36,610 bases of DNA, taken from Deltaproteobacteria bacterium (lineage in GTDB: Bacteria; Desulfobacterota; Binatia; Binatales; Binataceae). The stretch covers positions 9,674 to 46,283 of the forward strand of contig JAJZAG010000001.1 of NCBI GenBank assembly GCA_021799555.1. The letters are read 5' to 3'. The notes beneath the pieces were generated by a model that was not told the DNA's origin, did no database searches, and saw nothing but the letters and a program-made list of their open reading frames with translations. A program made the translations under genes and the position numbers. Below, in pieces: positions 1,798-6,018 of this stretch. The first letter of the stretch is position 1; the number at the start of each line of letters is the position of its first letter.

Positions 1798-3132
1798 ATG
1801 TCGCAGCAATACGAATCAGAGTTGAAACGAAAAACCGTCAGTGCGGAACAGGCCGCGGAATCCGTCAAGCCGGGCGACTGGGTCGAATACGGCTTCGGTC
1901 TCGGCCAACCCGATTTGTTCGACGCAGCGCTCGCCGCGCGCGTCCCAAAGCTCGATCGTGTGAAGCTGCGCGGATGTCTTGCAATGAAACCGCGTGCCGC
2001 AGTCGAAGCAGATCCGGAGGGGCGGCATCTCGCTTACCTGTCGTGGTATTTCTCCGGGCTGGAGCGAAAGATGCACGACCGCGGGCTGTGCAATCACATT
2101 CCGATGAACTTCGGCGAGGCGCCCGACAACTATCGCCGATTCGTTGACGTCGATGTCGCCGTGCTGAAGTGTGCGCCGATGGACGCGCACGGCTATTTCA
2201 ATTTCGGCCCTTCGGTCACCTATCACAAAGCGATTACGGAAACGGCCAAGCACCTGATTATCGAGGCCGACGCGAGCGTTCCCTACGTTTACGGTCTCGA
2301 GTGCGGCGTGCATATCAGCGAAGTAGATCAGGTAATCAATGCGGGCGCGGGCACGATGCCCGAGCTGAAAAATGCCGGGCCTGGTCCCGCCGACCAGAAA
2401 GTCGCGGAATTGATCGCGCCGGAAATTAAAGACGGAGCGTGCCTGCAAATCGGAATTGGCGCGATGCCGAACGCCGTCGCCGAGCTGCTGGCCCAATCGT
2501 CGGTCAAGGACCTCGGAGTCCACACCGAGATGTTCGTAGATTCCCTGGTCTCGCTTTACGAAGCCGGCAAGATCACCGGCGCGCACAAAACTACCAATCG
2601 CTATCAGATGACCTATTGCTTTGCCGCCGGCTCCTCGCGCCTCTACAAGTTTCTTGATCACAATCAGGCGTGCTTCGCCGGTCCTGTTGATTACACCAAC
2701 CTGCCGCATCACATCATGCGCAACGACAACGCGGTTGCGATTTGCAACGCCGCGCAGATCGATCTGACCGGCCAGGCCTGCTCCGAATCCGCGGGAATCA
2801 GGCAGATCAGCGGCACCGGCGGGCAGCTTCAATTCATCCGCGGCGCCTACGCTTCAAGGGGAGGCAAAGCGATCCTATGTCTCGCTTCGACTTTCGAGCG
2901 CGAAAATCGGCGCGCGAGCCGAATTGTCGCGCGCATCGATGAATCGAACATAGTGACCACCCCGCGCACCGACGTGATGTACGTCGTGACGGAGCACGGG
3001 ATCGTCAATCTAAAGGGCAAGTCCGTACCCGAACGGGCTCGTGCTCTGATCGGGATTGCGCATCCGGATTTTCGCGACGATCTCGAGCGCGCCGCGCGCG
3101 AGTATCGGATATTGCCGCGGACGCTTTTCTAG
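1798..3132 (+). CDS. Family I CoA-transferase (acetyl-CoA hydrolase/transferase; butyryl-/4-hydroxybutyryl-CoA transferase-like)
   Basis: LQIGIGAMP, GVHTEM (catalytic Glu), SGTGGQLQFIRGA, VTEHGIVNLKGKS..ERARALIGIAHPDFR. GAGGT SD. Confidence 0.9.
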   Translation: MSQQYESELKRKTVSAEQAAESVKPGDWVEYGFGLGQPDLFDAALAARVPKLDRVKLRGCLAMKPRAAVEADPEGRHLAYLSWYFSGLERKMHDRGLCNHIPMNFGEAPDNYRRFVDVDVAVLKCAPMDAHGYFNFGPSVTYHKAITETAKHLIIEADASVPYVYGLECGVHISEVDQVINAGAGTMPELKNAGPGPADQKVAELIAPEIKDGACLQIGIGAMPNAVAELLAQSSVKDLGVHTEMFVDSLVSLYEAGKITGAHKTTNRYQMTYCFAAGSSRLYKFLDHNQACFAGPVDYTNLPHHIMRNDNAVAICNAAQIDLTGQACSESAGIRQISGTGGQLQFIRGAYASRGGKAILCLASTFERENRRASRIVARIDESNIVTTPRTDVMYVVTEHGIVNLKGKSVPERARALIGIAHPDFRDDLERAAREYRILPRTLF

Positions 3133-3446
3133 CGGCTCGCCCGCGAGTCGCTGTCGGTGAACTTGTAGACGATCTCGTCGGGTCGCGTGAAGCCAAGTTC
3201 GCGGCGAATCACGCGTTCGAGATAGCGGTCGTTCGAGGTCAGGTTCTGAACGTTTGTTCCGAGTGCAGCGTTGCGCGCGATAAGCTTTGCGCGCCGCGCC
3301 TCGAGCGCGCGGCGCTCAGCGCGCAGCGCTATCAGGTCGCCCGGGCCAAGCGGACCCAGCCCAAGGCTCATCCCAAGGACGCTCAAAATCCCGGTCAGGA
3401 TTAGAATTAACCATTGCCGCCGCAGATAATCACTTAATCGGCGCAT
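3129..3446 (-). CDS. FtsB/DivIC-family septum formation initiator
   Basis: Single N-terminal TM helix, a coiled coil, then YLERVIRRELGFTRPDEIVY. Start uncertain (ATG 3446 preferred over 3482). Confidence 0.8.
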   Translation of the reverse strand: MRRLSDYLRRQWLILILTGILSVLGMSLGLGPLGPGDLIALRAERRALEARRAKLIARNAALGTNVQNLTSNDRYLERVIRRELGFTRPDEIVYKFTDSDSRASR

Positions 3447-3583
3447 TCGTTCATCATAGAGGGTTCGAGGTTCTGAGTTCAAGACAGTGCTTTGTTGAAC
3501 GGTATTCTAAACCCCAGAAAACGCATTGATTTAGGGAGCCGTTCCGACTTTAGAATTTCTTTATAAATTTATGCTCCAACCCC

Positions 3584-3612
3584 TTGCAATTGTAAAAACA
3601 GGTTTCTATAAT
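3584..3612 (+). promoter_or_regulatory. sigma70-type promoter
   Basis: TTGCAA (3584-3589), 17 bp spacer, TATAAT (3607-3612), preceded by an AT-rich tract (3549-3572) in a GC-rich genome. Confidence 0.85.
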
Positions 3613-3693
3613 CGCGATCGACGGGTGGGGTTCATCGGACCACTCATTAGGTAGGGTGCTCATCCAACAGCGGCCAATTGAGAGGAGGTGTCT

Positions 3694-3795
3694 ATGCCAG
3701 TTAAGAAGAATGCGGCCCCCAAGCGGGCAGCCAAATCAAAGTCAAAGCTGAAGAGCGGTATGAAGAAGAAGGCCGGCAAAAAGAAGAAGAAGTAA
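3694..3795 (+). CDS. 33-aa Lys-rich basic microprotein (below ORF-track cut-off)
   Basis: MPVKKNAAPKRAAKSKSKLKSGMKKKAGKKKKK*. AGGAGG SD at 3683-3688. Flanked by a promoter and a terminator. 13 of 15 Lys codons are AAG. Confidence 0.85.
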   Translation: MPVKKNAAPKRAAKSKSKLKSGMKKKAGKKKKK

Positions 3796-3896
3796 CTAGC
3801 CACAAGTTTTCCTCCGGGCTTTAACCCCCCGGAGGCTGGCTAACGATGCCAGGCAAGCTGCTGGAATGAGCCGAGGCGTAAACGCCTCGTAAACCG

Positions 3897-3928
3897 AGAG
3901 AGCCCCCCTAACCGGGGGCTCTCTTTTT
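3897..3928 (+). terminator. Rho-independent terminator
   Basis: 11-bp stem AGAGAGCCCCC (3897-3907) / GGGGGCTCTCT (3914-3924), 6-nt loop, followed by a T run. Confidence 0.85.
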
Positions 3929-4129
3929 GGTGTTTCCAGCATGACCGTTGACTTGGTGGTGGGCAGGTCACTCCAGATCCGGAGGCAGGAGACCTCACCA
4001 GCTCCGACAGCCCGTGGACCCTGTGGCCAATTCGCCGCCTTGATTTCCAGCACAGTCGGCCTGCCTGGATTCGGGCGAGGGAACAGAGGCGAGCGCGGGC
4101 GCTCTAAATGTTCGGCTTTCCGCGCGCTG

Positions 4130-4951
4130 TCAGTGCGCGGCCGGCGGTGCTCCAGACGCGCCGCCGGGTGCGGGGCGCGGTCCGCCCATCATGCCGTGTG
4201 ATCCGGGGGCGGGGAGTTCGCGCTTGGTGTATCCGGCGGGGACTTTGAACTGATCGGCGGCAATCTTCTGCGAGACAATCTTGATTACCACGGTTTGCGT
4301 CGTGATAGGCTTGCGATTTGCCATCATCTTTTGCAGCTTGGCCTGCTGATCGGGGGAAAGCCCCGGGATATTAATCTTGTTCATCTTCATTGTGGCGTCG
4401 GAGGCGAGTGGAACTCCGTCCGGAACGTCGCCCGAGGGCTGGACGCCGCTGGACTTGAATTTTTCCATCGTGGCCTTCATGAAGTCGCTATATTCGCGGG
4501 CGCCTGGCGCGGTTTTGGAAAAGCATTCGACCATAGTGACATCGCCGCCCATCGAGGTGGTCGTGGCGGTGTAGTCCTGGCAGGTGTAGCCGGCGATTTT
4601 GCGGGTGGTTGATTCCTTTTTGAAATTCATCGCGCCTGCCGATTGCGCCAGCATCTTCGCCATCGGGCCCGACGGCGGATAAGGCAATTGCACATAACTC
4701 TTTTGCGCGGGTTCGAGGAAATACATTTGACCGCTGCCGAGATCGATAATCACGGTGTGATTACCGCCCTCGATGCGCTGCTTGTCGCCCTGTACGTAAA
4801 TCGTCTGCTCGCGCTCTTTCGGCGGCGCCGACGATGCGCCCATTGGGGTACCTTGGACAGTCTCGTGCTGGGTGATCACCACGCCTGCCAGCGCGGGAAT
4901 TGCGGCCAGCATAAGCACGATGCCGGCCGTGGCGGCGATTGCCTTCTTCAT
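4130..4951 (-). CDS. Exported DUF4412-like protein
   Basis: True start is MKKAIAATAG..IPALA (signal peptide) at 4951, with an ATGA overlap with the upstream stop. Contains IIDL..GQMYFL, KIAGYTCQDY and FKVPAGY, typical of DUF4412-type proteins. Confidence 0.7.
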   Translation of the reverse strand: MKKAIAATAGIVLMLAAIPALAGVVITQHETVQGTPMGASSAPPKEREQTIYVQGDKQRIEGGNHTVIIDLGSGQMYFLEPAQKSYVQLPYPPSGPMAKMLAQSAGAMNFKKESTTRKIAGYTCQDYTATTTSMGGDVTMVECFSKTAPGAREYSDFMKATMEKFKSSGVQPSGDVPDGVPLASDATMKMNKINIPGLSPDQQAKLQKMMANRKPITTQTVVIKIVSQKIAADQFKVPAGYTKRELPAPGSHGMMGGPRPAPGGASGAPPAAH

Positions 4952-6018
4952 AATGTTTGCTCTCCTTGAGCCTTCTGGATCTCGAGCACGTTTGCGCTTC
5001 GAGCCGACAGCGCGTGCCCGGCGCCGCTTGCCCTTTCCACAACCAGCCGGTGTGCGGTCAGACTCGCGAGCCCGAACAGCACCCAGACCATCTCCTTGAT
5101 TCTTCTTAGAAACCCAATCGCAAAGCCAACCCCGGCAGGATAGCCGAGCAGACCAAGAATCAAAGCCTTGCCGCCTTCCTGGCTGACCAGCTTGGCGGGG
5201 ATCAAAAAAGTCGCGCGCTCGATTAGCAGTCCCACACCTTCGACGAGCAGCGCAATCCGGATTGTCGCCGGTTGATGGAGCAGCTTGAGCAGGATGAAAA
5301 TCTCGACTGGTCCCATGCTCCACGCGACGATGTAGCAAAGGCAAGACGCGAGCAGCCGCGGGCGATGGTGCGCATAGAAATCGAGCAGGATCGAATCGGC
5401 TTCGTCTGCCGAGGTCCTGATCTCGTCGTGGGCGGCAGCGCCGAAATCGAACTTAACCGCTGTGCGCCACAGATAAGAGAATGGGCGGCGGGTCTGCACC
5501 CAGAAGAACGCGGCCGCAAGCGCGACCGCGATCGCGAGTCCTCCGAATATCGGCCAGAGCAGTCGATGCGCCTGCGGGATCATCGGGATCGAGACCAATA
5601 TCGCGGCGCTGACGAAGACGATCTGCCCGATCGCCTCAGTCAGCGCCGCGACGATAACCGTCGCCAGCGCGATCGGCATCCTGAGCACCCGCCGCACCAT
5701 GAGCGCCATAACAAACTGCCCACCGAGTTGAGCGGTCGGGGTGACGTAATCGACCGCCTCGCCGGCGATTCGGGCTGCGAACAATCGACCGAAACCTAGT
5801 TCGCGGGGACATTCGGCGATCGTCGCCCGCCAACCCAGCGTGTTCGCGACGCGCGCCACCGACTCAAGCGCGATAGTCAGCGCAAGGCCCCATCCCGCCG
5901 TCCGCAGATAGGCAAGCACCTGACCGGCACCGAAATGCGACAGGAACCAGACGTAGAAGACGACGGCAAAGACAAGGAAAATTGATTCGACGCGGCGCAT
6001 CGCAAAAGGTGGTGTCAT
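4948..6018 (-). CDS. Lysylphosphatidylglycerol-synthase TM (flippase-like, UPF0104/HpnL-like) membrane protein
   Basis: Multi-TM protein with GWR, GEAVDYVTPTAQLGG, FLIPAKLVSQEGG, LRRIKE. Alternative start ATG 6000. Confidence 0.78.
   Translation of the reverse strand: MTPPFAMRRVESIFLVFAVVFYVWFLSHFGAGQVLAYLRTAGWGLALTIALESVARVANTLGWRATIAECPRELGFGRLFAARIAGEAVDYVTPTAQLGGQFVMALMVRRVLRMPIALATVIVAALTEAIGQIVFVSAAILVSIPMIPQAHRLLWPIFGGLAIAVALAAAFFWVQTRRPFSYLWRTAVKFDFGAAAHDEIRTSADEADSILLDFYAHHRPRLLASCLCYIVAWSMGPVEIFILLKLLHQPATIRIALLVEGVGLLIERATFLIPAKLVSQEGGKALILGLLGYPAGVGFAIGFLRRIKEMVWVLFGLASLTAHRLVVERASGAGHALSARSANVLEIQKAQGEQTL

Follow-up and report, generated by a model that had tools for sequence, protein, structure and literature searches.

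Our results indicate that a 36,610-nucleotide (nt) stretch of the genome of a Deltaproteobacteria bacterium (class Binatia, family Binataceae; GenBank assembly GCA_021799555.1, contig JAJZAG010000001.1, positions 9,674 to 46,283), referred to here as the window, carries a conserved gene for a highly basic 33-residue protein, and that the two ends of the mRNA of this gene are predicted to be paired by a conserved long-range helix. The gene forms a complete stand-alone unit at positions 3584 to 3932 of the plus strand, with a promoter, a Shine-Dalgarno (SD) sequence, an open reading frame (ORF) of 33 codons, and a terminator. The coding sequence (3694 to 3795, ending in TAA) encodes MPVKKNAAPKRAAKSKSKLKSGMKKKAGKKKKK, in which 15 of the 33 residues are Lys, 5 are Ala, 2 are Pro, and 1 is Arg, with no Asp or Glu. 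An earlier reading of the window from its letters alone (the original prediction) had described a stand-alone unit, unannotated and with very strong expression signals, that would encode a microprotein, and comparison with related genomes indicates that this unit is genuine. The unit and the ORF are as that reading described them; the breadth of the gene within the class and the conserved helix between the 5' and 3' untranslated regions (UTRs) had escaped it.

Conservation of the microprotein gene

A DNA search with positions 3130 to 3960 in 41 related genomes gave matches in 25, including 10 of 10 genomes of the same genus and 22 of 24 of the same family; the 16 genomes from other families yielded just two weak matches. 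For distant genera, the matching region spans the microprotein unit and not ftsB, its divergent neighbor. All 20 loci fetched from this search carry GGAGG followed by an ATG-initiated ORF of 31 to 37 amino acids (aa). The ORF was found in 36/36 Binataceae loci (31 distinct sequences; one locus each comes from the unpublished genomes G010 and G107) and additionally in 5/5 rechecked profile misses, L034, and L037. These misses arose with a peptide profile (A1) that matched 16 of 25 Binataceae genomes and none of 175 genomes from 19 other families of the class. When the ftsB locus was checked in five of the nine Binataceae genomes without a match, the gene was present in all five, and the misses are thus false negatives of a short, low-complexity profile. 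Conservation of the ORF and the SD sequence in relatives had been named beforehand as a point on which the original prediction could fail; both are kept in every related locus examined.

The reading frame shows the marks of selected translation. Length differences between loci are multiples of three only, and the mean pairwise differences at codon positions 1, 2, and 3 are 0.175, 0.202, and 0.384, the third being about twice the first and second. The median ratio of nonsynonymous to synonymous substitution rates (dN/dS) is 0.14 (NG86, 332 pairs), a value to be read together with the open antisense frame that is weighed below. The genome holds one copy of the gene. Judged by comparison of sequences, the ORF at 3694 to 3795 is a real, conserved gene under purifying selection, which appears to be present throughout the Binataceae examined and to have a patchy distribution in five further families.

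Outside the Binataceae, ftsB loci were sought in 16 genomes from ten other Binatia families and matched in 14, and three of these 14 have, in the same divergent position, a K/A/P-rich ORF of 26 to 36 aa with a strong SD sequence and the motif SKAKKKAPAKKK. A diverged form of the peptide, MA.KKKATSKAKKKAPAKKKAAKKKK, here called subfamily 2, occurs in five further Binatia families. Its profile (A3) matched 12 of 201 genomes across the class (8/25 in family f9, 1/20 in f7, 1/19 in f10, 1/12 in f11, and 1/8 in f13), and the SD sequence and ORF are present in all 12. In an alignment of 46 distinct peptides, Met1, Ser15, Lys20, Lys24, and Lys25 are invariant, and intermediates join both subfamilies. 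The peptides range from 25 to 38 residues. A C-terminal block, MKKKAGKKKKK, is near-invariant in the Binataceae, and between families the peptide drifts into K/A/P repeats, keeping its composition more than its sequence. Ser15 (3736 to 3738), which lies in a K-S-K context, is the sole invariant non-Lys residue besides Met1 among the 46 peptides, which suggests a site of modification or contact.

Searches on a larger scale stayed within the same lineage. A joint profile (A5) of low sensitivity, which also missed the known positive G032, matched 4 of 301 genomes across the phylum, all of them Binataceae, and 0/291 outside the class, a result that says little about absence. A search of genome contigs for related loci gave one locus with A1 and none with A3. 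A search of 1.84 billion protein representatives yielded only five matching clusters, each belonging to this family and three of them over-extended gene calls. The sequencing data sets listed as matching positions 3100 to 4100 are all DNA data sets, from mine-drainage and sediment metagenomes, and include no RNA data set. Within the reach of these searches, the gene appears lineage specific to the class Binatia.

A long-range helix joins the ends of the transcript

Thirty-one distinct Binataceae transcripts were aligned from 78 nt ahead of the ATG to 140 nt past the stop codon. RNAalifold, pair counts, and the minimum free energy (MFE) fold all point to a 13-bp helix between a 5' arm (GCUCAUCCAACAG, 3658 to 3670, plus strand) and a 3' arm (CUGCUGGAAUGAGC, 3858 to 3871, plus strand). 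Within this helix, 95.5% of 403 alignment cells are paired, 7 of the 13 pairs have changes in both partners, and 0/500 shuffles attain these figures, in a type of test that is inflated by relatedness. Slid registers pair at 13 to 56%. In subfamily 2, RNAalifold on 13 transcripts predicts a helix in which 92.3% of 143 cells are paired and 5 of 11 pairs are compensated, again with 0/500 shuffles reaching these values. Its arms, about UCUCGCCUGRG with CUCAGGCGAGA and with different pairs in L061 and L062, have the same topology, one lying 50 to 75 nt ahead of the ATG and the other just ahead of the penultimate hairpin and the terminator. Replacement of the whole helix between the subfamilies is difficult to account for unless pairing is under selection. 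We regard the mRNA ends as paired by a conserved helix between the 5' UTR and the 3' UTR, predicted independently in both subfamilies.

The helix is also part of the single-sequence MFE structure of positions 3619 to 3932 (-117.1 kcal/mol). A gap-free helix score reaches a z of about 2 to 3 per single sequence, and shuffle maxima often equal it; as single-sequence scores are weak, the case for the helix rests on the alignments. Twelve nucleotides separate the helix from the SD sequence downstream of it, and in the consensus structure the SD sequence and the AUG are essentially unpaired.

Further hairpins are predicted along the transcript. The MFE fold contains a hairpin in the 5' leader (H0, GGGUGG...CCACUC, 3623 to 3645, plus strand), and most relatives have a hairpin of different sequence at this position. 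The 3' UTR hairpin H1 (CCUCCGGG...CCCGGAGG, 3811 to 3835, plus strand) begins 15 nt past the stop codon; a strong hairpin is found there in 31/31 transcripts, with stem sequences that differ. It is followed by a segment, CUGGCUAACGAUGCCAG (3836 to 3852, plus strand), that is conserved in the alignments and may either fold locally into a hairpin (H2) or pair with the post-stop CUAGCC or with AUGCCAG at the start codon. Covariation favors none of these pairings, the AUGCCAG/CUGGC sides that pair in the MFE fold being invariant or varying independently. Directly after the long-range 3' arm lies H3 (CGAGGCG-UAAA-CGCCUCG, 3872 to 3889, plus strand), with 6 pairs by RNAalifold, 2 of which have changed in both partners; in subfamily 2, a GGGCCC hairpin occupies the equivalent position behind the arm. 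A short 3' UTR motif is alike in both subfamilies, GCUGGCUAACGAU in the Binataceae and GCUAGGCACGUAG in the others (columns ~303 to 314 of alignment A4), and the remainder of the UTR differs; the shared motif may be a recognition site for a protein or an RNase. Across genera, the noncoding parts of the unit are as conserved as the ORF. An Rfam search (E ≤ 1) returned only two chance-level matches, Atu_C4 (E = 0.12) and BSnc120 (E = 0.39), the latter corresponding to H3 plus the terminator.

Signals of the transcription unit

The original prediction had located a promoter, an AT-rich tract, an SD sequence, an ORF, and a terminator, and rereading of positions 3300 to 4200 placed all of them as it had stated. 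The promoter is of the sigma-70 type, TTGCAA-17-TATAAT (3584 to 3612, plus strand), with its -35 element at 3584 to 3589 and its -10 element at 3607 to 3612, and predicts a transcript start near 3619. The -10 element TATAAT and the spacer motif ATAAC are kept across 20 aligned loci. Upstream, at about -47 to -70 from the predicted start, lies an AT-rich box, TTTAGAATTTCTTTATAAATTTAT (3549 to 3572, plus strand), which is nearly invariant in the 20 loci and unique in the genome at up to 3 mismatches. A/T runs occupy the equivalent position in the other subfamily (L042, L048, and L050). UP elements are a feature of rRNA-type promoters, and by analogy the box would be an UP-element-like tract. A regulon defined by the AT-rich box was considered and rejected; its half-site, TTTAGAAT, occurs 15 times in the genome and is not enriched relative to a rough expectation of about 22.

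The SD sequence AGGAGG (3683 to 3688, plus strand) lies 5 nt ahead of the ATG at 3694 and outside the long-range helix; GGAGG is present in 31/31 aligned transcripts (GGA-GG being invariant) and in 12/12 subfamily 2 loci. The intrinsic terminator (3896 to 3932, plus strand) consists of a stem at 3896 to 3925 (12 pairs, 8 of them G-C) followed by a T run, and RNAalifold finds it kept with compensatory changes in 31 sequences. The claim that these are the most consensus-like signals of the window held in consensus scans of its full length: the promoter is the sole 10/12 match among 11 promoter-like sites, the remaining ten standing at 9/12, and the terminator stem is the longest among 51 terminator-like sites. 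Promoter-like sites are no more frequent in the window than in shuffles. By themselves, the signals are no proof; it is the conservation of the unit that shows its reality, and we count the unit as more than chance because related loci conserve it, not because of the signals themselves.

Sequence properties of the peptide

No family in Pfam-A (E ≤ 1) or NCBIfam (E ≤ 10) matches the peptide, and the Pfam search likewise gave no match to the Hc1/HC2 profile (PF07382). A profile search against PDB chains returned only two chance matches (E = 0.24 and 0.49), the first aligning the N-terminal MPVKRK with eS26. PF08213 is the domain of bS22 (PMC10081302). Searched in six frames at E ≤ 10, the whole genome gave 0 matches to PF08213, a profile that in a control on 14 genomes gave a signal in 4 and exceeded the family cutoff in 1. 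The original prediction had judged by eye that the peptide is neither bS22 nor bTHX, and these searches, in which the chance alignment with eS26 was the only ribosomal chain of the PDB to appear, support that judgment. In the ESM Atlas, only unnamed clusters were found, below 0.9; the closest named cluster (HC2) stands at 0.76, which is chance level, and 20% of its members carry HC2. No description of the peptide family was found in the searchable literature, which excludes subscription-only papers.

The proportion of Lys among basic residues, K/(K+R), is 0.94 in the peptide, compared with 0.24 in the long ORFs of this genome (61.5% G+C), 0.29 in bL34 (5 K/12 R), and 0.45 in bS21 (9 K/11 R). 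AlphaFold2, run with the 46-sequence alignment, gave a pLDDT of 68 and a pTM of 0.23, with one helix at residues 16 to 24, so that a mostly disordered chain is predicted. The peptide has no hydrophobic run, membrane segment, or recognizable interaction motif.

The ftsB neighborhood

The left neighbor (3129 to 3482, minus strand), which the original prediction had called ftsB-like, is identified as FtsB/DivIC by PF04977 at 5e-14, with NF002058 at 2e-10, below its cutoff; its true start is probably the ATG at 3446. In 36/36 Binataceae loci, the microprotein ORF and ftsB stand side by side in divergent orientation, 199 to 261 bp apart, and ftsB is adjacent in 9/12 subfamily 2 loci. In the other 3 of 12, ftsB was not detected beside the microprotein gene. 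In one locus of family f10 (L060), the gene lies not beside ftsB but directly downstream of an enolase-like ORF (1831 to 3048 of that locus, minus strand). The enolase gene eno is a classical neighbor of ftsB, and the eno-ftsB arrangement is common in other bacteria.

Between the two genes, the motif ATTCTAAA (3504 to 3511), which reads TAGAAT on the minus strand, is conserved in the alignment of 20 loci and is likely the -10 box of a divergent ftsB promoter; its CATTCT form stands upstream of ftsB in other Binatia families (L042, L048, and L050). With this box on the ftsB strand, two divergent promoters would lie back to back within ~110 bp. Across Binatia families, this motif is conserved as CATTCTAA, some 20 nt ahead of the reading frame of ftsB.

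The next real gene to the right of the unit (4130 to 4750) is convergent and encodes a DUF4412 protein. Together, the right-hand neighbors occupy 4130 to 6018 on the minus strand, the DUF4412 protein having a signal-peptide-like N terminus and the other being a membrane protein of the lysylphosphatidylglycerol synthase transmembrane family (PF03706, 2e-22). Neither is kept beside the microprotein gene in relatives. Just 3' of the terminator (3929 to 3980), nine relatives of the genus (L002 to L010) share a …CTTGC…ACCTAATGAT[CT]GCGA… stretch that the window does not have, and in the alignment the window sequence beyond the terminator is not conserved relative to its own genus; the missing stretch implies that right-side synteny breaks in this genome. 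On the far side of ftsB, the weak Rfam match to Atu_C4, a small RNA of Rhizobiales (3006 to 3070, minus strand; 22.8 bits against a cutoff of 80, E = 0.12), falls on a hairpin that lies between ftsB and the convergent acetyl-CoA hydrolase/transferase gene (1798 to 3132), and this hairpin is most likely merely a shared terminator.

Function of the peptide and its mRNA

We tentatively favor, at a little less than an even chance, an explanation in which the gene produces an abundant, disordered polycation that acts by its charge, most likely on DNA, from a looped mRNA protected against RNases. The abundant peptide would act as a counter-ion to a cellular polyanion or as a ligand that condenses it. 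The most probable target would be DNA, making the peptide a minimal, free-standing counterpart of a histone H1-like tail, with RNA or ribosomes and polyphosphate as alternatives. The 13-bp helix would close the short mRNA into a loop flanked by stable hairpins, an arrangement that most likely shields the tiny message from ribonucleases and may couple mRNA stability to translation in the manner of the hbs mRNA of Bacillus subtilis. How abundant the peptide is, what it binds, and what the helix does are inferences. We rank DNA first because selection appears to act specifically for lysine and because the peptide drifts toward K/A/P repeats like those of H1 tails, which is weak evidence; the extreme bias of Lys over Arg likewise favors an H1-like role over a ribosomal one.

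Several observations weigh against this explanation. The genome already has five HU/IHF-type genes and thus no obvious gap among its nucleoid proteins, a general nucleoid role leaves the strict linkage to ftsB unexplained, and whether the target is DNA, RNA, or polyphosphate cannot be told from composition alone. The window's own fold is modestly better than those of shuffled sequences (z = -2.27; 4/100 shuffles as good), and the relatedness of the aligned sequences inflates the shuffle-based covariation tests. In 44/44 sequences, the antisense frame contains no stop codon, and its third positions coincide with those of the sense frame, so that dN/dS is weaker than it appears and cannot choose the strand. 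The sense frame was chosen because GGAGG-N5-9-ATG is invariant, the stop is fixed, and the antisense frame has no conserved start. The antisense translation (3660 to 3803, minus strand) is rich in Phe and Leu (…YFFFFLPAFFFIPLF…) and resembles a membrane peptide. A gene on that strand was rejected; the minus-strand frame has neither a conserved start codon nor a conserved SD sequence, and its openness follows from composition.

The foremost rival, which we consider possible though rather unlikely, is that the peptide belongs to the ribosome or associates with it, as a small lineage-specific protein that occupies a groove of the rRNA and whose structured mRNA serves autogenous feedback. Autoregulated ribosomal protein genes typically have structured mRNAs, and the structure of this mRNA, like the near-invariant C terminus in the Binataceae, would fit such a gene. 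So would the size, the charge, and the presumed strong stand-alone expression, as in the known lineage-specific ribosomal peptides bS22 (33 aa, pI 12.75) and bL37 (24 aa), both of which were unannotated before cryo-electron microscopy (PMC10081302). Against this stand the absence of any match to PF08213 or to a ribosomal chain beyond chance and the Lys-dominated composition of the peptide (15 K/1 R), which is unlike that of the Arg-rich small ribosomal proteins of the genome. Moreover, the drift in composition between families is not what would be expected of a peptide fitted to a fixed rRNA pocket, and the peptide was not found in most of the Binatia families searched.

Another explanation, which we hold to be unlikely, is a system in which the message forms a stable, closed RNA and free peptide would bind the structured UTRs of this mRNA and thereby set its own level, the peptide being either a division-linked mini-linker-histone or a Binatia-specific ribosomal protein. 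A mini-linker-histone that compacts the nucleoid for division would account for the fixed head-to-head link to ftsB. If true, this self-sensing polycation would represent both a new protein family and a new regulatory RNA element.

The link to ftsB also raises the possibility, to our minds a doubtful one, that the peptide is a factor tied to cell division, either coregulated with ftsB through the shared control region or active in the divisome, in nucleoid occlusion, or in clearing the chromosome from the septum. The divergent arrangement, universal in the 36 Binataceae loci and present in 9 of the 12 subfamily 2 loci, has outlasted divergence of both the peptide and FtsB to 40 to 50% identity, and even in L060 the gene lies downstream of an enolase-like ORF, eno being a classical neighbor of ftsB. 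Synteny alone is weak evidence, however, for a peptide without a membrane segment or interaction motif, and it is interrupted in the three subfamily 2 loci at which no ftsB was detected.

More doubtful still is a polycation associated with polyphosphate, organizing or neutralizing polyphosphate granules as Pseudomonas AlgP does. AlgP, a lysine-rich, histone H1-like protein, localizes to these granules and spaces them (PMC9239181), and the K/A/P-rich composition of the peptide resembles its tail. The argument is purely compositional, however; Pfam reveals no homology to AlgP, and linkage to ppk or ppx was not seen in the window or in the related loci.

It is improbable that the main product is the structured RNA of ~310 nt, with a regulatory or scaffolding role and an ORF that is either secondary, as in dual-function RNAs, or untranslated. 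The UTRs are indeed conserved as strongly as the ORF across genera, with several conserved hairpins, the long-range helix, and the 3' UTR motif common to both subfamilies. Yet the invariant SD sequence, ATG, and stop codon, the indels in multiples of three, and the dN/dS of 0.14 point to selected translation, Rfam (E ≤ 1) gave no match besides the two at chance level, and the RNA sequence is wholly changed between the subfamilies, whereas the type of peptide is kept.

We consider it very improbable that the gene encodes a harmful peptide of the type I toxin kind, whose full-length mRNA would be kept inactive by folding of its 5' end onto its 3' end until 3' processing, as in hok and aapA1. A small ORF, a stand-alone unit, and paired mRNA ends are shared with such systems, and folding of the full-length aapA1 mRNA hinders translation until 3' processing (PMC5416894). 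Here, however, the peptide has no hydrophobic stretch and no long helix by AlphaFold2, the helix leaves the SD sequence and the AUG free, a scan limited to the sigma-70 consensus found no promoter-like minus-strand site within 3584 to 3932, the antisense frame has no conserved start, and the gene is a single-copy core gene in fixed synteny rather than a mobile multicopy module. Finally, an attenuator leader peptide that senses Lys codons was rejected, because the next gene (4130 to 4750, DUF4412) is convergent and no regulated gene lies downstream.

Whichever of these explanations holds, genes as small and low in complexity as this one are dropped by gene callers and masked in homology searches. 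The expression signals of the present example are unsurpassed within 36 kb, and its place beside ftsB is kept across a class of uncultured bacteria. If abundant, the peptide would be a missing part of the chromatin, the ribosomes, or the polyphosphate biology of Binatia. The helix, maintained by compensatory change and with its sequence replaced between subfamilies, offers a natural series for the study of end-to-end pairing in very short messages. Because the peptide is within reach of chemical synthesis, its proposed binding could be examined at low cost and with no need for cultures of the organism.

Comparison with known systems

Taken as a whole, the unit reads most readily as a free-standing, minimal H1-like polycation encoded by an hbs-like looped mRNA, an interpretation drawn from sequence features and analogy. 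Chlamydial Hc1 and Hc2, Pseudomonas AlgP, and the N-terminal domain of Streptomyces DdbA are described as K/A/P-rich, acid-free, low-complexity polycations like the peptide described here (PMC2848022, PMC9239181, PMC3643593). The subfamily 2 motif AKKKAPAKKKAAKKKK and the AKKKAPAKKK repeats resemble the repeats of these proteins, and Lys far exceeds Arg. There is, however, no detectable homology, and the peptide is free-standing at 25 to 38 aa, whereas the H1-like proteins exceed 100 aa or form a tail on a folded domain. Unlike them, it also has an invariant Ser, fixed blocks at both termini, a looped mRNA of its own, and synteny with ftsB.

The ribosomal peptides bS22 (PF08213/DUF1713, together with eL41 and mS38), bL37, bTHX, and bL38 are ~24 to 56 aa in length, very basic, often unannotated, and highly expressed (PMC10081302, PMC11851116). 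Compared with peptides of the bS22 type, the one described here is dominated by Lys rather than rich in Arg, is predicted to be mostly disordered, and drifts in composition between families. The mRNAs of type I toxins (hok/Sok; aapA1/IsoA1, PMC5416894) share a small stand-alone ORF and pairing of the ends. The microprotein gene differs from these systems in its nonhydrophobic product, its unsequestered SD sequence, the lack of an antisense promoter in the consensus sigma-70 scan, and its status as a single-copy core gene.

The closest parallel at the level of the mRNA is the hbs message, which encodes HU in B. subtilis. [quoted passage not shown] Both mRNAs are short, encode a basic protein, and have a strong SD sequence, a structured 5' UTR, and a helix of ~13 to 14 bp between the leader and the 3' UTR. 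The microprotein gene differs in belonging to a different phylum with a different set of RNases, in having an ORF of only 33 codons, and in having a helix that is found class-wide with its sequence replaced between subfamilies.

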